A stretch of 64,000 nt of DNA, taken from assembly GCA_964495685.1 (NCBI GenBank), contig CAZBVQ010000001.1, positions 105,521 to 169,520 of the forward strand, given 5' to 3'. The notes under the pieces are model-generated. The model saw nothing but the letters and a program-made list of their open reading frames with translations. It had not been told where the DNA came from and did not search any database. Position numbers and translations under genes: made by a program. This document shows, in pieces, positions 6,303 through 47,799 of the stretch (its first letter is position 1; every line of letters begins with the position of its first letter). This DNA comes from an uncultured Candidatus Saccharibacteria bacterium. Its GTDB lineage: Bacteria > Patescibacteriota > Minisyncoccia > Phycocordibacterales > PALSA-1337.

Positions 6303-6653
6303 TTACTTAGTTTTTAAATGTTGTTTGATGTGTTCGATATATGCCTCGACCGCTTGTATCTGATTGTCGTTCAGATCATACTTGGCCCGAAGGAAGGTGG
6401 GTGTACTTGCTTTGGCGATATAATCCTCTTGTGTGATGCCTGCCTTTGTGAGGATTAACTCAACCGGCTCCTTCAATCCGTCCGCAATCTGTCGAAGTGT
6501 CTTGACTGAAGGGGAATCATCCAAGTACTCACCGCTTTCAAGCCTCGAAATATATCCTCTTGTGAGCTTCGATTCCTTGGCAAGTTTCTCCTGGGTCAAA
6601 CCCTTATCTTCACGCAATGACTTTATGACCGTGTGCAATTTCATGTTCTTCAA
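6303..6653 (-). CDS. XRE-family helix-turn-helix transcriptional regulator (ImmR-like repressor)
   Basis: LTQEKLAKESKLTRGYISRLESGE is a classic Cro/C1 HTH; pairs with the ImmA gene. Confidence 0.85.
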   Translation of the reverse strand: MKNMKLHTVIKSLREDKGLTQEKLAKESKLTRGYISRLESGEYLDDSPSVKTLRQIADGLKEPVELILTKAGITQEDYIAKASTPTFLRAKYDLNDNQIQAVEAYIEHIKQHLKTK

Positions 6654-7112
6654 TTCAACTTATGCTTCTAATGCTTCGACTGGCTTAATGATACCATGCA
6701 TGACTACAAGGTTACAATAGTATACAGTGTGGATATTGAATTAGGACACGGAAATAGCCACCTGTAAATACTTGGCTACGAAAAGCCAATCAAGTCAAGA
6801 ACGAATCGATAGAGATATGTATTTATGGCGATGTATAGCCATTCTTTGAACTTCATGAGTTTGAGATGGGTCTAAACTATTGGGTTTGTTTGGCTTTTGA
6901 CCCAAGTGAGACATGATGCGGATCCATCAAGGACTGTCTCAATTGTCTCATTTTGAGGAAACTAGCCCCTATGCGGATGCCTCACTACACTATTGGTGTG
7001 ATTGCCAGAAAACCCTTATACTGTCTTATACTACACAGTCCGAGACGTTAGTGGGGCACAACCAATACGCATGTTAATGTTAGATAGTTGTGATAATATC
7101 TTGAGATCAAAC

Positions 7113-7382
7113 ATGAAAAAATACTCTGAAAAAATGATAGTAATTATTTTTGGTTTCTTACTGTTCATTCCGGGTGTTTTAAGTATTTTTCCTCCGATAA
7201 GTTATCTGGTCTCACATTACGAATATGTCCTTCGTCTTCCAGCTCACGGTTTTCCTCTTTTATATAGGGGAGCTTTCCTTTTCATTGATTCATTATATTA
7301 TGCGCCAGTAGTTTTAAAGTTAGCCGTTTTGTTTGCCGGATTATTTTTAATATTATACGGATTCATCCATTACAAGAGATAA
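7113..7382 (+). CDS. small hydrophobic membrane protein (about 89 aa from the internal Met)
   Basis: Two or three predicted TM stretches (IVIIFGFLLFIPGVL, LAVLFAGLFLILYGFI). Confidence 0.35.
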   Translation: MKKYSEKMIVIIFGFLLFIPGVLSIFPPISYLVSHYEYVLRLPAHGFPLLYRGAFLFIDSLYYAPVVLKLAVLFAGLFLILYGFIHYKR

Positions 7383-7404
7383 ATAGTGAATATCCTCATA
7401 TATT

Positions 7405-8022
7405 ATGTCCATCAAATTCAACGAAGTTACCTGGTACTCAAAGCTCGGCGCAATCATCTTGTTTATTCTGGTCGTTCCAGTTTTGACGTTTTGTATTGGT
7501 CGGAAATATCAGGAAGTCATCGACATTCAGGTTGTAAGTGTGACAAATACTTCATCACCAAAACATATGGCCGCATCACCTGATCACCAGGGCGCAGTGA
7601 GTCCTCTGAGTAGTACGTATCACATCGATGATCAGGATGTAACACTCTCCAACGGTTCATTCGAGCAATCTGTAGAGGGAAGTTCTGGCACATTCGAGAC
7701 AAAACTATTTGGCGAGCCAGTGTATGGCGACCTCAATGGCGATGGTGTCAACGATGCTATTTCATTTTTGTATCAGGAGACTCCAGGTACTGGTATCTTT
7801 TTCTACGCTGTAGCCACAATCAATGTGAACGGCTCGTATGTCGGCACCAATGCCATTTTCTTGGGAGACCGTATTGCTCCGCAAAATATTACTATCTCCA
7901 AAGGTGTAGCCGCTGCAAACTATGCGACTCGCAAAGATTCAGATCCCATGACTACCGATCCATCAGTTGGAGTGACCAAATACGTGAAGATCGAAGGGTT
8001 GAAATTGGTGGAGGGGAGGTAG
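7405..8022 (+). CDS. membrane-anchored hypothetical protein (N-terminal TM)
   Basis: N-terminal TM segment AIILFILVVPVLTF; DLNGDGVNDA-type motif. Confidence 0.45.
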   Translation: MSIKFNEVTWYSKLGAIILFILVVPVLTFCIGRKYQEVIDIQVVSVTNTSSPKHMAASPDHQGAVSPLSSTYHIDDQDVTLSNGSFEQSVEGSSGTFETKLFGEPVYGDLNGDGVNDAISFLYQETPGTGIFFYAVATINVNGSYVGTNAIFLGDRIAPQNITISKGVAAANYATRKDSDPMTTDPSVGVTKYVKIEGLKLVEGR

Positions 8023-30759: not shown

Positions 30760-32508
30760 ATGCTCATCGAAGACACCCAGCTCTATAAATTCATTCTCGA
30801 TTCAGGCCTCGTTACCAAGGAGGATCTTGAGGCTGCCAAGAAGGAGGCCGACAAGAATGAGAAGCGCCTTGGTGACATTCTCGTCTCCGCAGGCAAAATT
30901 ACCGCTGACAACCTGCGCCGCATGGAGGCGTATGTGCTGGGCATCCCATTCGTTGACCTCAAGGGTAAAAAGATAGACTCAGATACACTCTCACTCATTC
31001 CTGAGCCGATCGCTCGTGGGCACAACATCGTCGCATTCAAGAAATCAGACTCCTCGCTCGAGGTGGCCATGCTCGATGTCAACGACCTTTCAGCTATTGA
31101 TTTCATCAAGAAGAAGGTCAATCTCAAGATCCAGCCACGCCTGACGGATTCGGACTCTCTCAAGGAGGTATTGGTTCAGTATCAAAAGAGCTTGAAGGCA
31201 GAGTTCGGTGATTTGATTCAGAAGGAGACCGCAACGCTGAAGACGATTGCAGAAGACAATGGGGATCCGTCTTCGGAGGCCGATATGAAGAAGCTGGCCG
31301 AAGATCTACCAGTTGTGCGCATCGTCGATACACTGATCAAGCATGCTGCTATCCAGAATGCCTCGGATATTCATATCGAGCCCATGGATAACCAAGTGCT
31401 GGTGCGTTACCGTATTGATGGATTATTGCACGATGCGATGGTATTGCCACGACAGGCTGGCCCATCAGTCTCAGCGCGTATCAAGGTGCTTTCGAATTTG
31501 AAACTCGACGAGAAACGACTACCTCAGGATGGGCGTTTCAAGGTCGACATGAACAATGAGAAGGTCTCATTCCGCGTCTCTATATTGCCGACATATTATG
31601 GCGAGAAGATCGTCATGCGTCTTCTCCGCGAAAGCATTTCTGGCTATACACTCGAGTATCTCAACTTCCACGGGGAAGGGCTGGAACGTATTCACCACGC
31701 ACTGACGCAGACCACGGGCATGATCCTCACCACTGGTCCGACCGGTTCTGGTAAGACGACGACACTCTATACCATGCTCGATCTCCTCAATCAGCCCGAT
31801 GTCAATATTTCTACGATCGAAGACCCTATCGAATATCAGATCGGTCGCATCAACCAGACACAGGTTCGTCCTGAGATTGGATTTACCTTCGCGCAGGGGA
31901 TACGTACACTCGTCCGTCAGGACCCAGATATCATCATGGTCGGTGAAATCCGTGATAATGAGACGGCAGCTCTCGCGGTCAACGCTGCTCTCACTGGTCA
32001 CTTGGTGCTTTCGACGCTCCACACCAATAGTGCAGCTGGCGCTATCCCACGTCTTCTCGATATGGGCGTAGAGTCATTCTTGCTTGTCTCGACTCTCAAT
32101 ATCGTGATTGGCCAGCGTCTGGTTCGTCAACTGACCGAAACCAAAGAGAAGTATGAGTTATCCAAAGCTGAGCTTGCTCAGCTCGAGAAGGTGGTCGACC
32201 TCAATCGTGTACTCGAAGCACTGAAGGCAGACAAAATAGTCAAAGCCTCTGACACGGTCAAGGATTTGACGTTCTGGAAAGCTGTTCCATCTGGTGACAG
32301 TGATGGGTTCAAGGGTCGTGTCGGCATCCATGAGATTCTCAAGATGAATCAGAGTATCAAAGATCTGGTCATGAAGAATGCTACGGCCGCAGAGATAGAG
32401 GTGCAGGCCAAGAAAGAGGGGATGCTCACCATGCTCGAAGACGGTATTTACAAATGTGTCGAGGGCAAAACGACTATCGAGGAAGTGTTGCGTGTGATCA
32501 CTGAATAA
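30760..32508 (+). CDS. pilB: type IV pilus assembly ATPase PilB (GspE family)
   Basis: Walker A GPTGSGKTTTLYTML plus GspE N-terminal domain. Confidence 0.95.
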   Translation: MLIEDTQLYKFILDSGLVTKEDLEAAKKEADKNEKRLGDILVSAGKITADNLRRMEAYVLGIPFVDLKGKKIDSDTLSLIPEPIARGHNIVAFKKSDSSLEVAMLDVNDLSAIDFIKKKVNLKIQPRLTDSDSLKEVLVQYQKSLKAEFGDLIQKETATLKTIAEDNGDPSSEADMKKLAEDLPVVRIVDTLIKHAAIQNASDIHIEPMDNQVLVRYRIDGLLHDAMVLPRQAGPSVSARIKVLSNLKLDEKRLPQDGRFKVDMNNEKVSFRVSILPTYYGEKIVMRLLRESISGYTLEYLNFHGEGLERIHHALTQTTGMILTTGPTGSGKTTTLYTMLDLLNQPDVNISTIEDPIEYQIGRINQTQVRPEIGFTFAQGIRTLVRQDPDIIMVGEIRDNETAALAVNAALTGHLVLSTLHTNSAAGAIPRLLDMGVESFLLVSTLNIVIGQRLVRQLTETKEKYELSKAELAQLEKVVDLNRVLEALKADKIVKASDTVKDLTFWKAVPSGDSDGFKGRVGIHEILKMNQSIKDLVMKNATAAEIEVQAKKEGMLTMLEDGIYKCVEGKTTIEEVLRVITE

Positions 32509-32509
32509 T

Positions 32510-33730
32510 ATGTCTCATTTTATCTTCAAGGCGAAACATCCAGCTGGTGACGTGTATAGTAGCGAGAAAGACGCTACTGATCGGTATGAATTGTACAAAC
32601 TTATCCGTGAAAGTGGTGACGAAGTCGTCGAGATCCGGGAGGTCACTGCATCGAGGGGGTTGCACCGAGACATTTCGTTCGGGGGGTTGTTCAAGCACAT
32701 CAAGACAATCGAAAAAATTAATTTTGCCCGTAACCTCGGATCAATGCTCGAAGCTGGTCTGGCGCTGTCGCGTGCACTGTCTGTCCTCGAGCGTCAGTCG
32801 CACAATAAGGCGTTCAAGAAGGTGCTCTCTGAATTGATATCAGACATCAGCAAAGGATCGACGTTGTCCGATGCGATGACCAAGCATCCCAAAGTTTTCG
32901 CTCAGTTATTCGTTTCGATGGTACGTGCCGGTGAACAGAGCGGTACATTGGCAGAGTCATTCAAAGTGGTTGCGACTCAGATGGACAAGAGCTATACACT
33001 CGAACGCAAGGTCAAAGGAGCATTGATTTATCCAGGTGTTATCCTCTGTGCAATGATCTTGATCGGTATACTGATGTTCGTGTTCGTGGTTCCCACGCTG
33101 ACCAAGACATTCGTCGAGCTGAACGTGGCTCTACCACTCAGTACCCGTGTGGTGCTCGGTATTAGTGACGTGTTCCAGAACTATGGCCTCTTGGTATTGA
33201 TAGCGATCGCCGCTTCGGTGTGGGCGGTCACGTGGTGGTCACGTCGTCCTTCGGGGAAGCAGGTCATTCATGCGCTCGTCTTGAAGCTCCCCATCGTCGG
33301 TGGACTGGTGCAAGAAGTGAACACGGCTCGTACCGCGCGTACATTGTCATCACTTCTCGGTTCTGGCGTTGATGTGGTCGAGTCGGTCACTATCACTGCC
33401 GCGGTCATACAGAATGTTCATTTTCGGCGCGTCCTCGAACAGGCGTGTGGGGCTATCAAGAAAGGAGATCTCATGTCCAAAGTCTTCGCCGAAGCTCGTA
33501 CTCTCTACCCGGTGTTCATCTCCGAGATGATGAGTGTGGGCGAAGAGACGGGCAAGACGGGCGAGATGTTGGCTGGGGTTGCTCACTACTATGAGGATGA
33601 TGTCGAACAGAAGACAAAGGATATGTCGACGGTTATTGAGCCTGTGCTGATGATCGTCATTGCTGCGGGAGTTGGTTTTTTCGCCATTGCCATGATTTCA
33701 CCTATGTATTCGTTGGTAAATGCTATTTAA
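32510..33730 (+). CDS. pilC: type IV pilus platform protein PilC (GspF family)
   Basis: Two GspF repeats, three TM segments, starts 2 nt after pilB. Confidence 0.9.
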   Translation: MSHFIFKAKHPAGDVYSSEKDATDRYELYKLIRESGDEVVEIREVTASRGLHRDISFGGLFKHIKTIEKINFARNLGSMLEAGLALSRALSVLERQSHNKAFKKVLSELISDISKGSTLSDAMTKHPKVFAQLFVSMVRAGEQSGTLAESFKVVATQMDKSYTLERKVKGALIYPGVILCAMILIGILMFVFVVPTLTKTFVELNVALPLSTRVVLGISDVFQNYGLLVLIAIAASVWAVTWWSRRPSGKQVIHALVLKLPIVGGLVQEVNTARTARTLSSLLGSGVDVVESVTITAAVIQNVHFRRVLEQACGAIKKGDLMSKVFAEARTLYPVFISEMMSVGEETGKTGEMLAGVAHYYEDDVEQKTKDMSTVIEPVLMIVIAAGVGFFAIAMISPMYSLVNAI

Positions 33731-33734
33731 GCAT

Positions 33735-35543
33735 ATGAGATTGGAAATGAGAGACTCGAGCTTGAAGGGAATGCGGGCATTCACGCTCGTCGAAGTACTC
33801 GTGGGAGCAGCTGTGTTCCTGGTGGTGGCGATTGCTGCCTACAATGCATACATTGGCCTCTTCCAACTCATCAGTGTGAGCCAGAATAAGATTGTCGCCT
33901 TGAATCTGGCGAACGAACAATTTGAGATTGCCCGTAACATGCCCTATACGGATGTCGGTATCGTCGGAGGTATTCCGAAAGGTAAGCTCGCTCATATCCA
34001 ACAAGTAGTGCGCGGTGGGGTGCAATTCACCGTCACGACGACCGTGCGTAACCTCGATCTGCCTTTCGATGGTACTATCGGGGGATCTCCCAACGATCTG
34101 TCACCAGCTGATAACAAGCTCGTCGATATCACCGTAGCTTGTGATGGGTGCAAAAACTTCCATCCCATCAATCTAACTGGTCAGGTTGCGCCCAAGAATC
34201 TCGAGACGGCCTCAAACAATGGGGCACTGTTCATCAGAGTGTTCGATGCCAATGGTCAAGCGGTCCAAGGTGCTTCGGTCCATGTCGTCAATGTTGCCAC
34301 TACGACGACCATCGTCATCGACGATGTTACTGATGCGAATGGCATGCTCCAACTCGTCGATGTGCCACCAGGCACCAACGCGTACCGAATTGTGGTGACC
34401 AAATCGGGGTATTCAACAGACCGCACCTATTCTCCTAGTGATACGACCAATCCGTCACCACTCAAGCCAGATGCGACGGTATTATTACAACAAGTGACTC
34501 AAGTGAGCTTCGCTATAGATCGTCTGAGTACGGTCACTATCTCGAGTGTCGGGCCGACGTGTGCCGTGGTCCCTGATTTCCAGTTTGCATTGGTGGGGTC
34601 CAAGCTTATCGGCGCTACCACGGCGAAGTTTTCACAAAACATGATCACTGACGGATCAGGTAATCTCACGTTGTCTAATAACGTCGAATGGGATACCTAC
34701 ACAACTATCCCGACGAATACGACGTATGATGTGGCGGGGCTCAATCCGCTCAACCCTGCTACGGTCAACGCTGGGGTATCACAACAGATACAGATCATTG
34801 CGGTGCCGCGACAGTCGCGTAGCATTGTAGTAACTGTCAAAGATAGCGCGACGCAGCTACCTATATCTGGCGCCACGGTGACATTGAGCAAGGTCTCCTA
34901 TACCAGCACCAAGACGACGGGCAAAGGATTCATCAATCAGACAGATTGGTCTGGGGGCTCTGGACAAGCGACGACATCGGATACTACTCGGTATTGGAAT
35001 GATGACGGACATGTCGATGTGTCTGTTCCGGGAATTGTGTCGTTGCGTACGTCATTCGGTGAATATGACCAGGCTGGTACCATAGAATCTTCTACATTCG
35101 ATACGGGCTCAGTGAGTAATTTCTATACACTCACCTGGTCTCCGGTAGATCAGCCTGTTCAGGTGGGCGACAATGCGGTGCGTCTCCAGATCGCCACGGC
35201 GACTACGACTTCTCCAGAAACGTGGAATTTCATCGGTCCCGATGGTACAGCCAGCTCGTACTATACGGTGCCTGATGTGCCCTTGAGTGATGTACATAAT
35301 GGTGATAGGTACCTGCGCTACAAGGTCTATCTCGCGAGCGTCTCGACGAGTACGACACCGACAGTCACTGACGTCGCATTCACGTTCACTTCGTCGTGTA
35401 CTCCTCCAGGACAAGTGTTGTTCGCTGGTCTAGCGAACGGAACGTATCATGTACATGTGGTCAAAGATGGGTATTCAGATTTCGATTATGACATCGCCAC
35501 AGATGCCAGCTGGCAGGAAGTACAGGCAGTCATGACGCAGTAA
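33735..35543 (+). CDS. very large prepilin-type (class III signal) protein, pilin/pseudopilin-like
   Basis: KGMRAFTLVEVLVGAAVF prepilin cleavage/methylation motif and hydrophobic helix; about 600 aa with beta-rich, carboxypeptidase-regulatory-like segments (VHVVNVATTTTIVIDDVTDANGML, HVHVVKDGYSDFDYDI). Confidence 0.7.
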   Translation: MRLEMRDSSLKGMRAFTLVEVLVGAAVFLVVAIAAYNAYIGLFQLISVSQNKIVALNLANEQFEIARNMPYTDVGIVGGIPKGKLAHIQQVVRGGVQFTVTTTVRNLDLPFDGTIGGSPNDLSPADNKLVDITVACDGCKNFHPINLTGQVAPKNLETASNNGALFIRVFDANGQAVQGASVHVVNVATTTTIVIDDVTDANGMLQLVDVPPGTNAYRIVVTKSGYSTDRTYSPSDTTNPSPLKPDATVLLQQVTQVSFAIDRLSTVTISSVGPTCAVVPDFQFALVGSKLIGATTAKFSQNMITDGSGNLTLSNNVEWDTYTTIPTNTTYDVAGLNPLNPATVNAGVSQQIQIIAVPRQSRSIVVTVKDSATQLPISGATVTLSKVSYTSTKTTGKGFINQTDWSGGSGQATTSDTTRYWNDDGHVDVSVPGIVSLRTSFGEYDQAGTIESSTFDTGSVSNFYTLTWSPVDQPVQVGDNAVRLQIATATTTSPETWNFIGPDGTASSYYTVPDVPLSDVHNGDRYLRYKVYLASVSTSTTPTVTDVAFTFTSSCTPPGQVLFAGLANGTYHVHVVKDGYSDFDYDIATDASWQEVQAVMTQ

Positions 35544-35567
35544 GGTATCTGATGCTACAATATATAC

Positions 35568-36179
35568 ATGAGAGCTTTTACGCTCGTTGAAGTTATTACG
35601 ACAGTTGCCATATTCTCGGTCATCATGATCGCGGTTTCTGCGTTTGAGTACAACGTTCTTGATTACAATCGATCGGGGAGCACTTCGCTGACCAATCTGG
35701 AAGAGATCCAGTCTCTCCTCAAGACGATGACACGCGAATTGCGCTCGATGGAACCCGGTGATGACGGTGCCTATCCAATAATCGCTGCAGCGACGTCGAG
35801 TGTCACTTTCTTCGCCAATGTCGACGGTGATACGTCCAAAGAGAAAGTGAGATATTATATTGGCACAACGACGACGACACGTACGACCGTATTCCGTGGC
35901 GTGATCGACCCCAGTGGTGTGCCTGCTACATACAATCCGTCTTCAGAACGGATCAAGACGCTTGTCACGGGTGTGCGCAATGCGACGAATACGCCGATGT
36001 TCACCTATTATGATGGTATGTACGCAGGGACTTCGTCACCGATGACGTATCCATTGACACTCACGTCGATCCGTATGGTCGGGGTGACCATGACCGTGGA
36101 TACTGATCCTCTCCGTAGTCCAGTGACCAAGACATTCACGTCCCAAGCATCGCTCCGTAACCTCAAAGACAATTTATGA
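35568..36179 (+). CDS. prepilin-type N-terminal domain protein (pseudopilin)
   Basis: MRAFTLVEVITTVAIFSVIMIAV. Confidence 0.75.
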   Translation: MRAFTLVEVITTVAIFSVIMIAVSAFEYNVLDYNRSGSTSLTNLEEIQSLLKTMTRELRSMEPGDDGAYPIIAAATSSVTFFANVDGDTSKEKVRYYIGTTTTTRTTVFRGVIDPSGVPATYNPSSERIKTLVTGVRNATNTPMFTYYDGMYAGTSSPMTYPLTLTSIRMVGVTMTVDTDPLRSPVTKTFTSQASLRNLKDNL

Positions 36180-37660
36180 TAAGTATATATCGACATACGA
36201 TGCGTCATAGAATAGTGGTCCGCGGCGTTATTCTGGTCAATGTGCTTGTGTTTGCGGCTATTGCAGCGACGGTGACTATGGCGCTCGTCAGTTGGGGTGG
36301 GGGAGTCCTCAAGACGACCAGTATGCTCGGTTCGCGGGAACAGGCATTCCAACTTGCTGAAGCAGGTGTGGAATATTATCGCTGGCATCTTGCACATGCG
36401 TCGACCGATTATCAGGACGGGACAGGTCATGCTGGTCCGTACGTCCATACGGTCACTGATGTCGATGGAGATATCATCGGCAGTTATTCATTGACGATAA
36501 CACCTCCGCCGATAGGTTCTACCATCGTCAAGGTGCGCTCGGTGGGTACGGCATCATCGACGCCGCCAGTATCACGTACGATTCAAGCAACATTGGCGAT
36601 ACCGTCTCTTGCGAAATACGCCGTAGTCGCAAACCAAAACATGCGTTTCGGTGCAGGTACCGAAGTTTTCGGACCTGTGCATTCGAATGCGGGAGTTCGA
36701 TTCGATGGAGTGAGTCACAATATCATCACCAGCTCTTTGTCGACGTATGATGATCCTGATGACAGTTCGAGCCAACAGCGATTCGCAGTATATACCACGG
36801 TCTCACCGCAAGATCCCAACCCACCGGCGGCTGTACCCAATCGTCCTGACGTGTTCATGGCCGGCCGTCAATTTCCTGTCCAATCATATGACTTCAACGG
36901 GCTGACAGTCGATCTGTCGCAGATGAAAGCAGATGCCCAAGAGGCGGGAGTATATATACCCGCTTCAGGATCGCAGGGATATCATATCGTCCTCAAATCC
37001 AACGACACATTCGATCTGTACAAGGTCACGTCGCTCCAGAGTCCACCGTCATCGTGCTCGAATGTCAATAATCAGAGCGATTGGGGCACATGGAGTGTGC
37101 GCACACAGGTCCATCCTGTCTCTGGGGTCAACAATTCTCCTCAGAACTATCCATTCCCTACGAACGGAGTGATATTCGTCGAGGATCATGTCTGGGTGGA
37201 TGGTGTCGTCGACGGGGCGCGATTGACTATAGCTGCCGGCAAGTTTCCTGATAATGTGTCGACACGCAAGGACATCATGGTAAATGACGATGTGATATAT
37301 ACTCATTATGACGGTACTGATGTGATATCACTCGTCGCCCAGCGGAATGTGTCGACAGGACTGTTCAGTCAGAATGATCTACGGATCGATGCGGCTCTAG
37401 TGGCACAGAATGGCCGAGTGGGGCGCTACTATTATGAAGTAGACTGTCGTTCAAGTGGGACCAATTATTACACTCGTGATGTTATTACGTTGTATGGCAT
37501 GATTGCCACCAACCAACGTTATGGCTTCGCCTATACTGATGGTACCGGCTATGATACACGCAACATTATTTATGATAGCAACCTACTCTACGGTCCTCCG
37601 CCGTCATTCCCGCTGACATCGAGTCAGTACCAGACCATTTCGTGGCAAGAAGTACAATAA
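36176..37660 (+). CDS. pilus-associated membrane-anchored protein (PilX-like minor pilin?)
   Basis: N-terminal TM helix VILVNVLVFAAIAATVTMALV; co-oriented and overlapping the pseudopilin gene by 4 nt. Confidence 0.45.
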   Translation: MISIYRHTMRHRIVVRGVILVNVLVFAAIAATVTMALVSWGGGVLKTTSMLGSREQAFQLAEAGVEYYRWHLAHASTDYQDGTGHAGPYVHTVTDVDGDIIGSYSLTITPPPIGSTIVKVRSVGTASSTPPVSRTIQATLAIPSLAKYAVVANQNMRFGAGTEVFGPVHSNAGVRFDGVSHNIITSSLSTYDDPDDSSSQQRFAVYTTVSPQDPNPPAAVPNRPDVFMAGRQFPVQSYDFNGLTVDLSQMKADAQEAGVYIPASGSQGYHIVLKSNDTFDLYKVTSLQSPPSSCSNVNNQSDWGTWSVRTQVHPVSGVNNSPQNYPFPTNGVIFVEDHVWVDGVVDGARLTIAAGKFPDNVSTRKDIMVNDDVIYTHYDGTDVISLVAQRNVSTGLFSQNDLRIDAALVAQNGRVGRYYYEVDCRSSGTNYYTRDVITLYGMIATNQRYGFAYTDGTGYDTRNIIYDSNLLYGPPPSFPLTSSQYQTISWQEVQ

Positions 37661-41708: not shown

Positions 41709-42077
41709 TTATTTGAGCGCCGCAACAATCTTCTTCTTATTCCCCTCAAAATCATTTTTGTCACCTTTGACCTTGTCACTGGGGAATACCCACACGTGAG
41801 CATGCTCGATCTCCTCACCGACGATCTTACTCAGCACTTGGTCACAGTCGAACGCCTTACGCTGTGCATTGGCGACCTTTGCTACCACTTCGAAATAGGT
41901 ACCAACATTTTCAACATCCCAGACCCAGCGGTAGTGCTTCTTGGGAATAACGAGGGCGTGACCAGGTGAGAGAGGACGAATATCGAGGAAAGCTATGAAG
42001 TCAGTATCTTCATAGACAATATGGGCAGGAATTTCTCGGGCGATGATTTTGCAGAAAATGCAGGTGGACATATCCAC
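41709..42077 (-). CDS. HIT-family (histidine triad) hydrolase
   Basis: Histidine triad HAHVWVFP; CIFCKII N-terminus. Confidence 0.85.
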
Positions 42078-42144
42078 ATTATATCCTAGGTTTGGCCTAG
42101 AATCATTCCTAGGCCCGGCCTGGGTGGTGGGGTATAATCGCCCT

Positions 42145-43959
42145 ATGTCCTATACCACTCGCCGCCCATTGACTCTCGATGAACGCAACCGTGTCGGTGG
42201 TGCATCTGATGTTGTGGCACACCTCTTGTTCCATCGTGGTATTACCGATGCGGGAGCCGCCGATACATTCCTGATACCGAGCTATGATGTCCATGTCCAT
42301 GACCCATTCTTGCTCAAAGATGCTGAGCGGGCCGCTGAACGGTTCATCTCTGCTATCCAAAAAGGTGAGCGTATCGCCATCTATTCTGACTATGACGCAG
42401 ATGGCATTCCTGCAGCGGTCATGTTCAATGATTTCTTGAAAAGGATTGGATATGCCAATTACACCATCTATATTCCTCATCGTCACAATGAAGGTTTTGG
42501 TGTGAATGAGGATGCGGTAGAACAGCTTGCACGGGATGGGGTCAAGCTCATGATCACTGTCGACTGTGGCATTTCTGATGTTCATCCGATCACTCACGCG
42601 AATAGTCTGGGCATAGATGTCATAGTCACGGATCACCATGAGCCTCCCGCCGTATTACCACCGGCGTTCGCGATCATTGATCACAAACAGGCAGATTGCG
42701 AATATCCAGACAAACATATCTGTGGATCAGGCGTCGGATTCAAGCTCATTCAGGCAATTATCAAGAAAGCCAAACATCTAGCGTATGCACTCGGTAATCT
42801 GAAAGACGGGCACGAAAAATGGCTGCTCGACATGGTGGGTATCGCGACACTTTCTGACATGGTTCCTCTTACGGGGGAGAACAGGGTATTTGCTCGCTAT
42901 GGATTGTCGGTGCTGCGCAAGAGTCCACGCAAAGGGTTGATGAGATTATTGGCAAAATTGAAAATGAATCAGGCTCATTTAACTGAAGATGATATTGCCT
43001 TCATGATCACACCGCGCATCAATGCCGCTTCACGTATGGGTGTGCCCATGGACGCATTCAAACTTCTGGCCGCTGACAATGACACTGATGCAGAGTTCTA
43101 CGCCACACATCTCGATGAGATCAATAATGAGCGCAAGGGGATCGTGGCTGCATTGGTCAAAGAGATCAAGAAAACAGTACGTGAGCGATATGGGGAAACA
43201 ATACCATCGGTGATAGTGCTCGGTAATCCCGATTGGAAGCCATCATTGCTTGGTCTTGCTGCGAATTCATGCGCCGAAGAATTCGATCGCCCCGTCTTTC
43301 TCTGGGGGCGTGATGGTGACGATGTGATCAAGGGGTCATGTCGTTCTGAAGGAAAGAGTAATGTGGTCGAGATCATGCGTGGTATTCCCAGTGAGACGTT
43401 CCTGCAGTTTGGTGGACACAAACACTCGGGCGGATTTGCCGTAGCGAATGAAAGGGTCCATTTCTTGGAGAAGGAGTTGAATGAAGCAGCAGTAAAAATA
43501 AATTCGAAATTCGAAATCCTAAATCCTAAACAAATTCGAAATTCGAAATTCGACTTGTCTGCCGTAGCCTTGGCGAAGGCGGAAATTCAAAACAGCGAGG
43601 AAATGGATTGGGTTGATATGGAGTTGAAACTGGAAGACGTCACCTGGAATTTGCAAGAAGATATTGATCGTTTGTCACCATTTGGTATGGGTAATCCCAA
43701 GCCACTCTTCATATTCAAGAATGTCCGACCGGCTGAGGTGCGTATGTTCGGCAAGGCCAAGGATCATGTCGAGTTGGTATTCAAGAAAAAGAGTGGCGCA
43801 TCACTTTCTGCTATTGCATTCTTTGGTGGCGAGAATGAGTGGGCGCAACAGTTAATCGCTGACAAAAATAGAGAGGTTGATTTGATTGCATCAATCGAGA
43901 AGTCGATGTTTCGGGGGAGGAAGGAGCTCCGGTTGAGGGTGGAGGAGGTCCTCGTATAG
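42145..43959 (+). CDS. recJ: single-stranded-DNA-specific exonuclease RecJ
   Basis: DHH motifs (DYDADG, ITVDCG, VTDHHEP) and DHHA1 domain. Start at the internal Met; a TATAAT lies 6 nt upstream (leaderless-like). Confidence 0.9.
43497..43556 (+). repeat. in-frame tandem/interspersed short repeats (aattcgaaat units, cctaaat x2) inside recJ
   Basis: aaataaattcgaaattcgaaatcctaaatcctaaacaaattcgaaattcgaaattcgac, encoding [20 protein letters not shown]. Confidence 0.7.
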
Positions 43960-43981
43960 GTTTTCTGATATACTCGTCCGT

Positions 43982-44698
43982 ATGAATTCAATTATCATCT
44001 TCACCGACGGCTCTTCTCGAGGTAACCCTGGTCCTGGTGGATGGGGTGCAGTTATCGTCAATGGTTCACAAGTGACCGAGCTTGGTGGTGGGGAACAACA
44101 TACAACAAACAACCGAATGGAGCTCAGCGCAGTCATTGGTGGTCTCAAAACTGTCAGTGCTGACGAAGCCGTTACCATCTATTCCGACTCCTCTTATGTC
44201 ATAAATGGTATTACCAAGTGGGTGGCTGGCTGGAAACGCAATGGCTGGCTCACCAAGACCAAAGATGAGGTTCAGAATAAAGATCTTTGGATGGATCTCG
44301 ATGCACTCGTCTCCAAGTTGGGCCCAGGTTCAATTTCCTGGAAATACGTCGGCGGACATGTCGGTATTGCAGGCAATGAGCGTTGTGATGTCATAGCCAC
44401 GTCATTTGCCGATGGTGAAAAGGCGGAGCTTTACAATGGACCAATTTTTAAATATTCAATTCCGAACATTCTCGATATTTCACATGATGAGATCAAGGTG
44501 CAGGCCAAGAAATCTTCGTCGTCACGCTCGAACAAGCCAGCGTACTCATATGTCAGTGCCGTCGGTGGCAAGATCCAGATTCATCGCACCTGGGCTGAAT
44601 GTGAGAAGCGTGTCAAAGGGGTGAAGGGAGCTCGATTCAAGAAATCATTTGATGCCATGAATGAGATGGAAATCGTGAGTGAATTTGGCGGACATTAG
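43982..44698 (+). CDS. rnhA: ribonuclease HI with a C-terminal hybrid-binding-domain-like extension
   Basis: N-terminus IFTDGSSRGNPGPGGWGAV..NNRMEL..DSSYVING..W..VGGHVG.AGNERCD is RNase H1. C-terminus AYSYVSAVGGKIQIHRTWAECEKRVKGVKGARFKKSFDAMNEM resembles the RNase H1/caulimovirus viroplasmin HBD. Confidence 0.85.
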   Translation: MNSIIIFTDGSSRGNPGPGGWGAVIVNGSQVTELGGGEQHTTNNRMELSAVIGGLKTVSADEAVTIYSDSSYVINGITKWVAGWKRNGWLTKTKDEVQNKDLWMDLDALVSKLGPGSISWKYVGGHVGIAGNERCDVIATSFADGEKAELYNGPIFKYSIPNILDISHDEIKVQAKKSSSSRSNKPAYSYVSAVGGKIQIHRTWAECEKRVKGVKGARFKKSFDAMNEMEIVSEFGGH

Positions 44699-44707
44699 AC
44701 CACGCCG

Positions 44708-44760
44708 ATCAATCTTCAGCGAATCTTCATCGATTCTTGAATATTTCTTCATTACGAATA
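44708..44760 (+). repeat. intergenic repeat copy 1 (shares an identical 25-mer ATCAATCTTCAGCGAATCTTCATCG with 46770-46794), immediately upstream of the comEC-core gene
   Basis: Direct sequence comparison; the downstream about 30 nt is related but rearranged (TTCTTGAAT / TTCTTCATT / ACGAATAC blocks). Confidence 0.8.
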
Positions 44761-44776
44761 CCTAGAATGACTCTCT

Positions 44777-46132
44777 ATGAACAGGAGGGTCTTTTTGTTT
44801 TGGGTGATACTGATTTCCTGTGCACTGGCTCGGGTGATTTTGTCGCACGCTGTCGCGCCGGATATTGGATCGTGCCTCAAGTCTACTGTCCATGGTATTG
44901 GGATAGTGAATGAAGATCCCTCACGATCAGAGGGTGGGCAGGTGCTTATTATTCGTGCCGAACACCTATTTATGGCGACTTCTTCTGATTCGTGTGCGGA
45001 TGATCTACTTATTCGCATGAAAACCAAGCCATACCCTCGATGGGCATTTGGTGACGCTGTATCTTTCTCTGGCAAAGTATCCAAACCATTCAATTTCAAG
45101 AGTGATGTTGGTCGGACGTTCGATTATGTCGGATATCTTGCCAAAGATGATGTGTACTACGAGATCAAGAGTGCGACCGTCGAACGTCTCGAGGATACCA
45201 GACACGGATCGCTCGCTGGGCGAGTCGAGTCACTTCTGTTCAAAACGAAACGCCACTTCGTCACCAATATCGAGCGGACCCTGGGCGAACCTCACGCTGC
45301 ATTAGCCGCTGGGCTCGTCGTAGGGGAGAAGAGCGCTCTAGGCAAAGACCTGCTCAATGATTTCCGTATGGTCGGACTTATTCATATTGTTGTCTTGTCG
45401 GGATTCAACATAACTATCGTCGGAGATGCTATGCGTCGCATACTCTCATTCTTGCCACGTGTCTGGGGTATCGGTGTCGGCGGCGTAGGCATCATCTTGT
45501 TTGGTGTTATGGTCGGCGGGGGTGCCACAGTCGTTCGGTCTTGTTTCATGGCTTCTATTGCACTGTCGGCAGATCTCATCCGTCGTGACTACAATGTGAC
45601 GCGTGCACTCATATTCGCTGGGCTACTTATGGTCATCCAGAATCCGGCGATCCTCTTGCACGATCCTTCATTCCAGCTCTCATTCTTGGCGACATTGGGA
45701 CTTATCTTGCTCGCCAGTCCTATCGAGAAGCGTCTGACGTTCATTACGGAGAGGTTCGGTATCCGTGGCATTGTGGCTTCAACTATAGCGACGCAGGTAT
45801 TTGTGTCGCCCTACATTCTCTATACGATGGGCACCATTTCTATTATTGGCATGGTGGTGAATATTCTAGTGTTGCCGATTATTCCCGTTACTATGCTTTT
45901 TGTATTCCTGACAGGGGCGACAGGATTTATTTCATTGAATGTGGCACAGATATTCGGTTGGGTATCACACATGTTGCTCACGTACGAGTTGCATATGGTG
46001 GAGTGGTTCGCCCAGACTCCATTCGCTGCCGTGACCTTGCCGCAATTCTCTGGTTGGTGGGTGGCGGGGTTTTATGCTGGATTCTTCGGAGTGTTTGTTG
46101 TGCTAAGAATGAGAACATGTCGTACGAACTAA
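44777..46132 (+). CDS. comEC: ComEC/Rec2-family DNA internalisation channel protein, N-terminal and competence domains only
   Basis: N-terminal OB-like region then polytopic Competence domain (LIHIVVLSGFNITIVG..); lacks the C-terminal metallo-beta-lactamase domain. Confidence 0.8.
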   Translation: MNRRVFLFWVILISCALARVILSHAVAPDIGSCLKSTVHGIGIVNEDPSRSEGGQVLIIRAEHLFMATSSDSCADDLLIRMKTKPYPRWAFGDAVSFSGKVSKPFNFKSDVGRTFDYVGYLAKDDVYYEIKSATVERLEDTRHGSLAGRVESLLFKTKRHFVTNIERTLGEPHAALAAGLVVGEKSALGKDLLNDFRMVGLIHIVVLSGFNITIVGDAMRRILSFLPRVWGIGVGGVGIILFGVMVGGGATVVRSCFMASIALSADLIRRDYNVTRALIFAGLLMVIQNPAILLHDPSFQLSFLATLGLILLASPIEKRLTFITERFGIRGIVASTIATQVFVSPYILYTMGTISIIGMVVNILVLPIIPVTMLFVFLTGATGFISLNVAQIFGWVSHMLLTYELHMVEWFAQTPFAAVTLPQFSGWWVAGFYAGFFGVFVVLRMRTCRTN

Positions 46133-46159
46133 AAAGACACCCTATGGTGTCTTTTGTTA

Positions 46160-46741
46160 CTACTGCGCTTTATTGAAATTCTCTTCAATTACGCTCCAAT
46201 TGAGATTCTTGAAGAAATCTTCGACATACTGCTTCTTGCCTGAGGGCTGGTAGTCAGCGACGAATGAGTGTTCCCATAGGTCGAGCGCGAGAATGGGAGC
46301 GACACCGGTCAGATGGCCGAAGTGTTGTTCATCTACCCAATACTGGATCAACGTGTCAGTTACCTTGTCATAACCCAGCATGGCCCATCCTACACCACGG
46401 GTGGTGGCGAGATTTTTGAAGATAGTCACAAATGTCTCGAAAGATCCGGTCCACTCAACTATTTTTTTGTACAGTGCAGAATCTGCTGAGATCTCCTTGG
46501 GTCCACCCTCAAATGCGCTGAAATAATATTCGTGGTTGCGCATACCATCGAACTCGAATGCCTGTCGACGATAGGTCTCGCGACGAGCGTATTCGGGGAT
46601 AGTCTGATTTTCGACAACCTCATGTACGAGGTTGAAGTGCTTCACATATCCTTCATAGAGCTTGAGATGCTCTTCGATCGTCTTCTCGGAAATGCCAATA
46701 AGTTTGGGGATCTTGAATGTTTTTGGGGTGAATTGTTTCAT
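46160..46741 (-). CDS. sodA: Fe/Mn superoxide dismutase
   Basis: DLWEHSF..YQ (DxWEHAYY-type) C-terminal motif and the N-terminal His/Tyr pattern. Confidence 0.95.
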   Translation of the reverse strand: MKQFTPKTFKIPKLIGISEKTIEEHLKLYEGYVKHFNLVHEVVENQTIPEYARRETYRRQAFEFDGMRNHEYYFSAFEGGPKEISADSALYKKIVEWTGSFETFVTIFKNLATTRGVGWAMLGYDKVTDTLIQYWVDEQHFGHLTGVAPILALDLWEHSFVADYQPSGKKQYVEDFFKNLNWSVIEENFNKAQ

Positions 46742-46769
46742 GTGGCTATTGTATCACATGACCACACGA

Positions 46770-46820
46770 ATCAATCTTCAGCGAATCTTCATCGCTTCTT
46801 CATTTTTTCTTGAATTCGTA
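46770..46820 (+). repeat. intergenic repeat copy 2 (identical 25-mer), upstream of the ComEC MBL-like gene
   Basis: See copy 1. Confidence 0.8.
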
Positions 46821-47799
46821 CTGGTATGGTTTATACATGAATCTACGTATTGCAGAGCATCCGTTATTTGTCGGTCTGGCAGCCACCGCTCTTGTCTCGT
46901 GTCTCGCTGGCTACATCGCACATGAAGAAAGTCGAGCGCCGCTACTCGAGATATACGTGATTGCTTTGAAGGGAGGTCGAGCGGTGTTCATCCGTACGCC
47001 AGATGATCAGCGCATTCTGGTCAATGGCGGCCAGAATAGTGAGATCGTCAAACAGATCACCAACGTACTACCATTTTATTCCCGTCGGATCGATACGGTC
47101 ATTGCGACAGATACGGATCTCAAGAATGTCACGGGGCTCATAGACATTATTGGACGTTACGATGTACGACACGCTTATTTTCCTCGATACACACTAGACA
47201 ATATCGGGCTGGCGAGTACCACTGGTCCGAGTTTTCAGGTATTCACGTCTTCGCTCGCAGAAAAGCAAGTCAATGTACGCGAGATAGGTGCCGGAGATCA
47301 GGTGCGCATTTCTGGTCTGGAAGGTGTGACACCAGAGCCGTCGCCACCAGTTACGCTTCACGCTCTTTTTCCTGTTGATCCATCCGTATTCAGCTACTCC
47401 AAGGCTAGTCCGCCACAGATCATTTTCACTATTGAGCACGGCATGAATCGATTCACATTTGTGGACGATGCGTCTGTGAAAGTACAAAAGACTATTGCGA
47501 ATTCTACGACTACAAAGCAGTTATTTGATATGGATGACCTCGACTCTATTTTGATCACATCCAAAGCGGGGAAAATAGGAGATAGTGCAGCGGAACTGAT
47601 CAAGATCATTCAGCCAAGCTGGCTTATATTCGAACAAACAATCTCGGCCAAATCCTCGAGCGCTTCATCGGCAAAAGCACAGAAGAAAGCTGATCCTCTG
47701 GCGGGCATTCTGTTGGGCCATAGATTCAATGTACGTGCACTCAAAGTGGTCAGGATACTTTCTGATGGTGTGACGGTGGAAATAGAAACGACCCCGTGA
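46810..47799 (+). CDS. ComEC C-terminal metallo-beta-lactamase-like domain protein, apparently degenerate (no HxHxDH seen)
   Basis: LEIYVIALKGGRAVFIRTPDDQRILVNGGQNS...IDTVIATDTDLKNVTGL parallels the ComEC MBL domain start (fDVGQGda.li..p.g..lLiDgG....lvlTH.D.DH) with the metal ligands replaced. The ORF-track start is TTG 46810; an ATG at 46837 is an alternative. Confidence 0.55.
   Translation: MNSYWYGLYMNLRIAEHPLFVGLAATALVSCLAGYIAHEESRAPLLEIYVIALKGGRAVFIRTPDDQRILVNGGQNSEIVKQITNVLPFYSRRIDTVIATDTDLKNVTGLIDIIGRYDVRHAYFPRYTLDNIGLASTTGPSFQVFTSSLAEKQVNVREIGAGDQVRISGLEGVTPEPSPPVTLHALFPVDPSVFSYSKASPPQIIFTIEHGMNRFTFVDDASVKVQKTIANSTTTKQLFDMDDLDSILITSKAGKIGDSAAELIKIIQPSWLIFEQTISAKSSSASSAKAQKKADPLAGILLGHRFNVRALKVVRILSDGVTVEIETTP

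Follow-up and report, generated by a model that had tools for sequence, protein, structure and literature searches.

In the canonical three-domain ComEC of the B. subtilis type, an OB-fold, a competence channel, a transmembrane helix and a beta-lactamase-like (MBL) fold follow each other in one polypeptide. Bacteria of the CPR/Patescibacteria lack the ability to make nucleotides and are believed to rely on the uptake of DNA; to our knowledge, next to nothing has been established on their transcriptional regulation. ComEC-dependent natural transformation has enabled the first genetic studies of Saccharibacteria (PMC10633639). ComEC is described as not fused to MBL in 86% of CPR genomes, and that the fusion is lacking across the CPR has already been published (PMC6744442). 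For Moorella glycerini, structures of the full-length protein (30bt) and of the nuclease domain (9ic4) have been solved (PMC12455585, PMC13539106), and the canonical metal motif is H-x-D-x-D-H (PMC12455585). Streptococcus pneumoniae combines a ComEC with a presumably inactive beta-lactamase-like domain and a separate nuclease, EndA (PMC12455585).

In the 64-kb stretch of DNA from an ultra-small Patescibacteria bacterium analyzed here (the window), the canonical domains are present in the same order, but they are divided over two polypeptides with two promoters and another gene in between. Gene 1 alone resembles the MBL-less ComECs, such as ComE3 of Helicobacter pylori and the short ComECs of the CPR; in contrast to these, the domain has not been lost in this clade, but resides in a nearby separate gene that is invisible to Pfam. 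In the literature, we found no paper describing such a nearby gene for the "missing" CPR ComEC domain. In a large clade, the nuclease domain that CPR were reported to lack (PMC6744442) is separately encoded, degenerate and probably inactive. ComEC has to be scored differently in CPR genomes as a result, and one may ask which enzyme then breaks down the second strand. The explanation that we favor, and consider fairly likely, is a two-piece ComEC of which both genes are under a repeat-array cassette, bound by a putative activator that co-regulates them.

Organization and recurrence of the split comEC locus

The locus reads recJ-rnhA-comEC_N-sodA (opposite strand)-MBL-like, an order shared by about 65 of the 77 Patescibacteria genomes compared at species level (GTDB species genomes), and the recJ-rnhA-comEC_N order is conserved among relatives. 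The upstream neighbor of comEC_N, rnhA (43982..44698, + strand), encodes an RNase H that carries a hybrid-binding domain of the RNase H1 type at its C terminus (Pfam RNase_H, E 1.3e-42; Cauli_VI match at residues 190-221), and its stop codon adjoins promoter cassette 1. Gene 1, comEC_N (44777..46132, + strand, 451 aa), contains an OB-fold (DUF4131, PF13567; residues 5-136, E 5.7e-9, 36.3 bits vs a cutoff of 31.6) and a transmembrane competence/channel domain (Competence, PF03772; residues 180-445, profile positions 1-269 of 270, E 3.8e-47), and can be aligned with the solved structure of full-length ComEC (30bt_A) over residues 143-484 of the latter (E 7.4e-14). The protein is 50-72% identical across more than 70 related genomes. 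No PF00753-type beta-lactamase-like domain is present on this polypeptide, as the ORF stops at 46132, immediately behind the channel domain; a separate gene, starting 705 nt downstream of gene 1, past sodA, holds the MBL-like fold. These Pfam domains, together with the gene coordinates and the structure match of gene 2 described below, bear out the first-pass annotation, which had read the 451-aa gene as the N-terminal and channel domains of a ComEC divided into two genes around an oppositely oriented sodA.

The intervening sodA (46160..46741, - strand) encodes a Fe/Mn superoxide dismutase of 193 aa (Pfam Sod_Fe_C, E 1.6e-19). Its position between the ComEC halves is conserved in about 65 genomes, and 6 nt upstream of its ATG there is an extended -10 that belongs to sodA itself, TGA-TACAAT (46748-46756, read on the - strand). 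Where comEC_N and sodA converge lies a hairpin (46132..46155, without assigned strand; stem 46132-46141/46146-46155, loop CUAU) with an RNA fold of -12.8 kcal/mol (z -4.78; equally stable in 0 of 200 shuffles), a T-run after the stem and A's inside the 5' arm. This hairpin probably terminates transcription in both directions; a scan of 44400-47000 with the Rfam covariance models gave no matches at E<=1. In most of the clade, sodA on the other strand separates the halves, with a probable terminator hairpin following gene 1. The probable terminator is expected to prevent read-through from gene 1 into gene 2, and gene 2 would therefore need its own promoter.

The split arrangement is old and real, as the same order in about 65 of 77 species genomes argues against both a misassembly and a recent scar. 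Gene order is as in the window in L006 and L007, and two near-identical strains with independent assemblies (L001 and L002) share it together with both arrays; with these and about 65 other species having the same order and both arrays, the misassembly considered at first pass is excluded in practice. Overall, separate but linked comEC_N and MBL-like genes occur in about 70 related genomes. In some relatives (L035, L045 and L083) the two halves are adjacent separate genes without sodA between them. Contrary to the initial description of a gene split by sodA, this insertion is therefore probably not what divided it.

A degenerate beta-lactamase-like protein

Gene 2, comEC_C (46837..47799, + strand), encodes a protein of 320 aa in which a single N-terminal transmembrane helix (residues 7-31) precedes a beta-lactamase fold of the ComEC type that is degenerate. 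It had been listed as a 329-aa MBL-like gene, with a start at TTG 46810; the most likely start is ATG 46837, because homologs begin there and the promoter geometry fits. Pfam gave no match on the downstream protein. The best PDB match of its AlphaFold (AF2) model (pLDDT 88.9, pTM 0.86) in Foldseek is the ComEC beta-lactamase-like domain 9ic4 (E 7.8e-16; TM 0.75, normalized to the target). The family profile likewise finds 9ic4 (E 6.8e-14) and aligns to residues 530-746 of 30bt_A (E 1.1e-14), in agreement with the alignment to the ComEC C-terminal domain that had been noted before, and the N-terminal helix aligns with the ComEC helix preceding the nuclease domain. Genes 1 and 2 thus tile an unsplit ComEC at residues 143-484 and 530-746. 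There are 110 standalone homologs, and a family search yielded 190 clusters at E<=1e-30, and all proteins among the 150 matches listed are at most 396 aa long.

The missing His/Asp motif, first seen in gene 2 alone, is a property of the whole family: in 37 aligned members there are no HxHxDH or H-x-[HD]-x-D-H metal ligands and there is no invariant His. In the motif region ComEC STHPDADH aligns with ATDTDLKN of gene 2, such that D-T-D-L-K-N replaces the canonical motif at positions that vary across the family, and the family consensus VIATxTxGKNVSGL is found at the place of ComEC STHPDADHIGGL. Given the loss of every canonical metal ligand, gene 2 is predicted to have no metal-dependent nuclease activity, and most likely it is a pseudo-nuclease that has been retained to guide DNA or to play a structural part at the mouth of the channel. 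This is similar to S. pneumoniae ComEC, where an MBL-like domain is also kept without all catalytic metal ligands, although there the domain is still fused to the channel and here it is a separate gene. Retention of the domain without all its ligands implies that its role is not catalytic and that strand degradation is the task of a separate enzyme. Gene 1 would then provide the extracellular OB-fold and the membrane channel, and gene 2 what in ComEC is normally the last transmembrane helix and the extracellular beta-lactamase-like domain; both proteins would presumably associate, and strand degradation, if it occurs, would fall to a different enzyme.

The absence of the ComEC catalytic motif could also point away from ComEC, to an independent membrane-anchored MBL-fold protein such as a Pce-like envelope esterase, in which case the shared promoter would reflect a common regulon only. 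Pce (2bib, 1wra) is the second-best structural match, and the MBL-like protein evolves much faster than its neighbors (in L010, 45% identity, vs 72% for comEC_N and 93% for sodA). Nevertheless, the top structural and sequence matches are both ComEC, the N-terminal helix corresponds to the one before the ComEC nuclease domain, and a Pce-like esterase would require the very metal ligands that are absent. The gene is moreover linked to comEC_N in about 70 genomes, directly adjacent in L035, L045 and L083, and in L061 and L070 an MBL-like gene closes a ComGA/GB-like operon, making a protein functionally unrelated to ComEC very unlikely.

Repeat-array cassettes upstream of both genes

The 25-mer ATCAATCTTCAGCGAATCTTCATCG noted before both genes is indeed exact at 44708-44732 and 46770-46794, both on the + strand. 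These are its only two copies in 64 kb, where no third copy is found at <=3 mismatches, and 100 shuffles gave 0 matches. The repeat is longer than the 25-mer (59 nt at 83%, 44698-44756 vs 46760-46818) and the common layout runs on to each ATG, the 25-mer being the core of a homologous cassette of about 80 nt. Each cassette consists of a GACCAC lead-in, four direct 11-bp repeats with the unit consensus WWTCTTSAnnn, an 8-nt spacer and a -10-like hexamer followed by the ATG. In cassette 1 (44698..44776, + strand; PWM score 37.4 bits) the units AATCTTCAGCG AATCTTCATCG ATTCTTGAATA TTTCTTCATTA (44711-44754) precede TAGAAT (44763-44768), which is without TG extension and lies 8 nt from the ATG. In cassette 2 (46760..46836, + strand; PWM score 39.8 bits) the units AATCTTCAGCG AATCTTCATCG CTTCTTCATTT TTTCTTGAATT (46773-46816) precede TATGGT (46825-46830), which follows TGG and lies 6 nt from the ATG. 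The related TTCTTGAAT/TTCTTCATT blocks that had been described as shuffled are present, but they are units 3 and 4 of the regular array. A promoter scan found no sigma-70 -35/-10 pair upstream of either ComEC gene. As the ATG follows only 6-8 nt after the -10, both ComEC mRNAs are probably leaderless; leaderless-type starts are seen for 17 of 49 genes in this genome, and an SD-like site for 6 of 49.

Arrays with the 11-bp period and the same -10/ATG position precede both genes in most relatives (equivalent arrays are found in L006, L007 and L004, and cassette 2 of L001 is a one-base variant), and they persist where the MBL-like proteins share only 35-45% identity. The array criterion was passed by 104 of about 130 comEC_N/MBL-like upstream regions, compared to 0.5% of random windows and 14 of 1217 upstream regions of other ORFs. 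In relatives the arrays contain four to eight units, most often four or six. Called arrays end 20-22 nt before the ATG, and the information profile is periodic. The T/A/T of a -10 hexamer (TAnnnT), positions that took no part in array calling, is present at the fixed 8-nt offset in about 80% of the 104 arrays. Many relatives have T-rich units (TTTTATC, TTTTTGA; consensus ATTTTTTGATC / GGATTTTATCT), which also resemble intrinsically bent DNA. In L035 and L045, where the halves are adjacent, the array is found before gene 1 only, and in a minority of genomes (e.g. L044, L046, L047 and L053) the MBL-like gene has no array despite the presence of sodA. Together, the same array position before both genes across such divergence supports the earlier suggestion of a shared regulatory box that keeps the halves co-regulated. 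The conservation of the array in dozens of related species points to a previously undescribed regulator of DNA uptake, and a cis element this conserved and specific offers a handle for defining the regulon in complete genomes, searching for the regulator and reading metatranscriptomes.

The closest parallel in layout is the Pho box, bound by PhoB in E. coli and PhoP in B. subtilis, where 11-bp direct repeats about 10 bp upstream of the -10 replace the -35. The ComEC arrays share the 11-bp direct repeats, four in each cassette of the window, their frequent occurrence in pairs (four or six units) and a position that abuts the -10 with an 8-nt gap. They differ in the unit itself (WWTCTTSA vs CTGTCAT / TTAACA), as the Pho-box consensus is not matched, and phosphate as a signal is without support here. 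A tblastn search with PhoB found no OmpR-type protein in the 64-kb window, which is a fraction of the genome. By analogy with PhoB, a putative activator would bind the repeats head-to-tail on one face of the helix and recruit RNA polymerase instead of the -35 contact, from an array ending 8 nt upstream of a TAnnnT -10. Other dedicated cis elements common to DNA-uptake genes are the cin-box (ComX), the K-box (ComK) and CRP-S (Sxy). None of these fits the arrays in consensus or layout; AAAA-N5-TTTT and CRP-type palindromes are absent from the arrays, and the TACGAATA octamer at 44753-44760 in cassette 1 is absent from cassette 2 and from relatives.

The same position is open to other readings. 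Arrays spanning roughly -22 to -65 overlap the -35 region, and between sodA and gene 2 the first unit of cassette 2 extends over the upstream region of sodA as well; as multimerizing repressors often bind phased repeats, the arrays could be operators at which a repressor or nucleoid-type silencer occludes the promoter. We consider this unlikely, since the promoters have no recognizable -35 and cassette 1 also lacks a TG extension, so that they are expected to need help, and since such a strict spacing of 8 nt to the -10 is what class II activation typically shows, for example at Pho boxes, whereas a repressor would tolerate looser spacing. Alternatively, no protein would be needed if the arrays were intrinsically bent or UP-element-like DNA, in which helix-phased T-tracts stimulate RNA polymerase directly at promoters without a -35. 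The 11-bp period, the T-rich units of many relatives and the location directly upstream of the -10 are in line with this, but the units in the window (AATCTTCA) are free of A/T tracts of 4 or more. Also, conservation extends to specific positions other than T (96% of units have A at unit position 8, although this position helped to set the register, and C/G/T is found at position 7), arrays occur in only about 1% of other upstream regions, and many other leaderless promoters in the window have none. This makes a purely structural role decidedly unlikely, and we retain a putative activator as the preferred reading.

Other genes with the cassette and the similarity of its copies

Across 1.82 Mb, a cassette HMM found 57 + 57 sites at the two ComEC genes and only 17 elsewhere. 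The latter include ComGA/GB-like operons ending in an MBL-like gene (L061 and L070) and a pilin, and the cassette also precedes PemK-like toxins, a family of proteins of about 130 aa and a tRNA-Met; the type IV pilus operon of the window (30760-37660) has no array. The "competence-type" label given to the box at first pass is therefore borne out only in part. Because several of these genes have no obvious link to DNA uptake, the regulon may respond to stress or growth state rather than competence. Under the favored explanation, the two ComEC pieces would be expressed together, and along with them a few other genes, which in relatives are the ComGA/GB-like operon, the pilin, the PemK-like toxins and the ~130-aa family. 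More tentatively, the 11-bp cassette could be the operator of a Patescibacteria-specific DNA-uptake regulon, in which one putative activator would turn on, all from leaderless promoters, the two-piece ComEC (the channel and a pseudo-nuclease as its cap), a pseudopilus of the ComG kind and some toxin-like genes. The cassette itself would then spread by copy-and-paste as a promoter module and be homogenized within genomes. If true, no regulator-operator system would have been defined earlier in the candidate phyla radiation, and the cassette would help to tell when nucleotide-auxotrophic cells import DNA.

The two cassette copies in one genome are more alike than orthologous copies between genomes. 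Local alignment scores have a median of 29 within a genome vs 12 between genomes, in 32 of 57 genomes a gene's cassette is matched best by that of its own partner, and identity at unit positions not used for selection is 0.62-0.79 within vs 0.32-0.47 between genomes. This within-genome similarity, the identity over 25 nt and a GACCAC lead-in that is shared although it lies outside the units would also be expected if the repeat were a scar or gene-conversion tract without function, dating from the rearrangement that brought sodA in between the halves. However, the period and the -10/ATG distances persist in genomes with MBL-like proteins only 35-45% identical, the relative at 64% identity (L003) keeps the core of the units while non-core positions have changed, and the same cassette precedes other genes at unlinked sites. 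As an account of function, the duplication scar put forward at first pass is thus largely refuted by the comparative data and extremely improbable; as history it survives in part, since the near-identity of the copies probably reflects duplication followed by ongoing homogenization. Gene conversion or repeated copying would keep the copies alike, and the near-identity, including that of non-core positions, could partly be due to recent copying and not to selection on every base.

Homologous promoter segments before unrelated genes in one genome are known as propagated or "mobile" promoters. Near-identical cassettes of about 45-66 nt before non-homologous genes within one genome (L006 + L139, L060, L058) resemble these, but here the segment is a regular array of binding-site-like units, and its position is conserved over deep divergence. 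Within genomes, the cassettes offer a clear natural case of concerted evolution among promoter copies.

Two halves of a single ComEC

The first-pass annotation proposed that ComEC is split into two genes here, and this is borne out by sequence alignment to a solved ComEC. Gene 1 (comEC_N, 44777-46132) encodes a 451-aa protein with DUF4131 and a full-length Competence domain, but no beta-lactamase-like (MBL) domain, and gene 2 (comEC_C) encodes an MBL-like protein without a Pfam match. On 30bt_A, a full-length ComEC chain of solved structure, gene 1 covers residues 143-484 and the gene 2 family profile residues 530-746, so that together they tile one ComEC; the single-sequence alignment of gene 2 also covers the helix preceding the ComEC MBL domain. 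The sodA gene (46160-46741) lies on the strand opposite to both.

Homologues of gene 2 begin at the position equivalent to ATG 46837, which shortens the annotated 329-aa product to 320 aa; a start at TTG 46810 was ruled out by the homologue N-termini and the promoter geometry. Likewise, AGGAGG at 44783-44788 was discarded as a Shine-Dalgarno sequence that would place the start of gene 1 farther downstream, as relatives encode the basic residues with other codons (AAG CGA, AAA AGA, AGA AAA). The gene 2 family is a large group of standalone Patescibacteria proteins of ~300 aa (110 homologues), some of which are labeled "ComEC" or "beta-lactamase superfamily II hydrolase" in certain sources. At E<=1e-30, a profile search identified 190 clusters (50% identity); of these, the 150 matches listed are all at most 396 aa long. 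The AlphaFold model of gene 2 (37 sequences) is confident (pLDDT 88.9, pTM 0.86) and places a helix at the N-terminus (residues 7-31), ahead of a beta-sandwich.

The metal motif of ComEC is H-x-D-x-D-H (PMC12455585), and its aligned counterpart in gene 2 is D-T-D-L-K-N. The lack of a metal-binding motif, already noted for this gene, holds family-wide: the equivalent positions are variable and there is no invariant histidine, while the invariant residues are scaffold and loop residues in common with ComEC (TPxDxRxL, PFYxR, FxYSKAS). From these patterns we infer that gene 2 probably encodes a pseudo-nuclease that retains a structural or DNA-guiding role. Pneumococcal ComEC, in which the domain is presumably inactive and works with EndA, provides a precedent for such an inactive domain (PMC12455585).

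Divergence within the syntenic block is very uneven. When the related loci L010 and L008 are compared to the window, SodA is unusually conserved (90-93% identity), RecJ (76-78%), ComEC_N and RNase H (both 70-72%) are intermediate, and the MBL-like protein (45-46%) diverges far faster than its neighbors.

Gene order and the age of the split

The arrangement does not reflect an assembly error, as the gene order and both of the repeat cassettes upstream of the two halves recur in L001 and L002, two near-identical strains that were assembled independently. A locus scan limited to a single genome for each species yielded 77 loci, of which ~65 show the order recJ - rnhA - comEC_N - sodA (opposite strand) - MBL-like; L006 and L007 show this order as well. 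In a few genomes (L021, L035, L045 and the distant L083) the halves are adjacent as separate genes without sodA, and for this reason the fission of ComEC probably predates the sodA insertion. It has been published that CPR (candidate phyla radiation) ComEC hardly ever carries a fused MBL domain (PMC6744442); in the literature searched we found no paper on the separate degenerate MBL copy next door, or on the promoter element.

A short hairpin following gene 1 (46132-46155, -12.8 kcal/mol, z -4.8) should stop read-through, and gene 2 would consequently need its own promoter.

Between comEC_N and sodA, the 76 nt at 46081-46156 of the window are replaced in L001 and L002 by 1159 nt (L001 3405-4563), which introduces two extra genes (products of 228 and 52 aa, neither matched in Pfam) and alters the last ~17 codons of comEC_N. 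Identity to the window is 99.97% in the left flank of this strain-level replacement and 98.6% in the right flank, which suggests that its edge is a recombination boundary. In other genomes the gap reaches ~3-4 kb and includes PemK-like and pseudopilin genes. Directly upstream of comEC_N, recJ and rnhA are found in nearly all relatives (window 42043-44698; L006-L084), and this conserved group of genes for DNA and RNA-DNA processing, located beside the DNA import channel, may be relevant to nucleotide scavenging. In the RNase H (43982-44698), the catalytic domain comes first and the "RNase H1 N-terminal" hybrid-binding domain (PF01693) occupies the C-terminus (residues 190-221), a swapped order compared to typical RNase H1.

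Repeat cassettes upstream of both halves

Exact copies of the 25-mer reported ahead of both genes lie on the + strand, one at 44708-44732 and the other at 46770-46794. It is not a generic repeat within the 64-kb window, where no third copy occurs at <=3 mismatches, and it was never matched in 100 shuffles of the sequence. The similarity extends over 59 nt at 83% identity (44698-44756 and 46760-46818), and the two cassettes have an identical layout: a GACCAC lead-in, four direct 11-bp units, 8 nt, a -10-like hexamer and the ATG. The units are, in order, AATCTTCAGCG, AATCTTCATCG, ATTCTTGAATA and TTTCTTCATTA in cassette 1, and AATCTTCAGCG, AATCTTCATCG, CTTCTTCATTT and TTTCTTGAATT in cassette 2. 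The related blocks described initially as shuffled therefore exist, but they are units 3 and 4 of the array and are not shuffled. The hexamer is TAGAAT (44763-44768), 8 nt before the ATG, in cassette 1, and TATGGT (46825-46830), 6 nt before the ATG, in cassette 2. A search for TCTTSA-N5-TCTTSA yielded six perfect matches, confined to these cassettes, and a PWM scan found no third array in the window.

No Rfam match to the region was obtained. A cin-box candidate, TACGAATA at 44753-44760, is limited to cassette 1 and missing in relatives, and was taken as coincidence. Around the start codon of comEC_N, a stem-loop followed by a T-run (44769-44791; GACTCTCT-ATGAAC-AGGAGGGTC) was flagged as terminator-like, with similar pairing in L006 and L027 (GACTCCTT-ATGAGAA-AAGGAGTT); this pairing may simply follow from Arg/Lys codons or, with a transcription start farther upstream, could form a regulatory hairpin.

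A lag-11 autocorrelation detector at 25/33 was too strict, detecting cassette 2 and missing most diverged arrays, and was replaced by PWM, register and HMM scans. In L003, where gene 2 is 64% identical, the units retain the core (AATCTTC, TATCTTC, TTTCTTC) and the remaining unit positions are changed; the -10 is preserved, as is its distance to both the array (8 nt) and the ATG (6 nt). At ~40-46% identity (L006, L007, L004), arrays of four to six units precede both genes with unchanged geometry, and the same holds for most genomes across all loci. The register criterion identifies arrays in 104 of ~130 upstream regions of comEC_N and MBL-like genes, compared to 14 of 1217 regions ahead of other ORFs and 0.5% of random windows. 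Unit number has modes at four and six, the array ends 20-22 nt from the ATG, and a TAnnnT hexamer lies exactly 8 nt past the array in ~80% of cases, at positions that were unused in array calling. These data support the reading of the repeat as a shared regulatory box. The alternative raised in the first-pass annotation, a duplication scar, is rejected as a functional description by the geometry kept across relatives.

A scan found no sigma-70 -35/-10 pair upstream of gene 1 or gene 2, which supports, without proving, that a -35 is absent. SD-like sites are rare in the window (6 of 49 confident genes) and 17 of the 49, including sodA, rnhA and pilB, have a -10-like hexamer right before the ATG; this TAnnnT, often as TGnTACAAT, starts 11-15 nt and ends 6-10 nt before the ATG. 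These frequencies suggest that leaderless mRNAs are common, and seemingly the norm, in this organism, and the special feature would seem to be the array and not the putative leaderless start.

PhoB supplies the missing -35 contact at Pho boxes. By analogy, we propose that a putative activator could bind the helically phased direct repeats and itself provide the -35 contact, so that leaderless transcripts would yield the two ComEC pieces together, along with the products of a few other genes. A PhoB-like query gave no match in the window or neighboring loci, with the exception of the distant L083. Alternatively, the array might be the operator of a repressor, or its role might be purely structural, as bent DNA. 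Dozens of uncultivated species retain both the two-piece ComEC, with its apparently dead nuclease domain, and the repeat cassette, and the cassette offers a first concrete cis-regulatory handle in this group.

Candidate regulon and history of the cassettes

Across the 1.82 Mb of DNA covered, a cassette HMM identified 131 sites. The 57 sites before comEC_N and 57 before MBL-like genes match by construction, as the HMM was trained on them, and the informative sites are the 17 others, of which the convincing ones lie at the following genes. In L061 and L070, an array-driven operon (ComGA-like ATPase, ComGB-like, LVIVD-repeat protein, small membrane protein, MBL-like) follows rnhA in the place of comEC_N and sodA. 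On L139, a contig that shares its source metagenome with L006 and has arrays almost identical to those of L006, arrays precede a type IV pilin gene and a tRNA-Met. Other arrays lie ahead of PemK/MazF-like proteins (L060, L147) and an unannotated ~130-aa family on three unrelated contigs (L032 13420-13797, L044 289-696, L194 ~580-985), with the motif YFNxHGxxHLIRKG, a C-terminal HFxSVF and no match in Pfam or PADLOC. Thus DNA-uptake genes dominate the array-driven set, yet it is not purely "competence". In a metagenome scan with four TCTTNA units, unrelated perfect 11-bp satellites made up most of the at least 80 matches listed, among which L139, L147 and L117 were informative; L194 was found only among HMM matches.

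The L006-like cassette on L139 (1692-1851, - strand) lies ahead of the tRNA-Met with a ~24-nt leader containing a hairpin, and a tRNA gene is unexpected in what would be a regulon for DNA uptake. The type IV pilus operon of the window (30760-37660) encodes a PilB-like protein of 582 aa, a PilC-like protein of 406 aa and several proteins of prepilin type, and tpiA and an ABC transporter lie after it. It was rejected as a regulon member, as no array lies upstream of 30760; its promoter is a leaderless-type TACAAT of its own.

Array distribution also varies with sodA. Where sodA is absent and the halves are adjacent (L035, L045), only gene 1 is preceded by an array; where sodA lies between them, gene 2 usually has its own, with a minority of exceptions (L044, L046, L047, L053).

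The cassette copies resemble each other more within than between genomes. The median local-alignment score of comEC_N and MBL-like upstream regions is 29 within a genome and 12 for pairs from different genomes, orthologous upstream regions score 11-12, and the best partner is the same-genome copy in 32 of 57 genomes. At unit positions unused for the register, identity is 0.62-0.79 within genomes versus 0.32-0.47 between them. Third copies are likewise near-identical to those of their own genome (44 nt at 98% in L060; L139 compared to L006). Such concerted evolution suggests that, in addition to being under functional constraint, the cassette has undergone gene conversion or has been copied repeatedly. 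A duplication scar is a likely account of the history of the element. In L009, a Taylorbacteria genome, the locus (6363-7978) reads rnhA - array - MBL-like and lacks comEC_N and sodA, which is the product expected of recombination between two direct-repeat cassettes.
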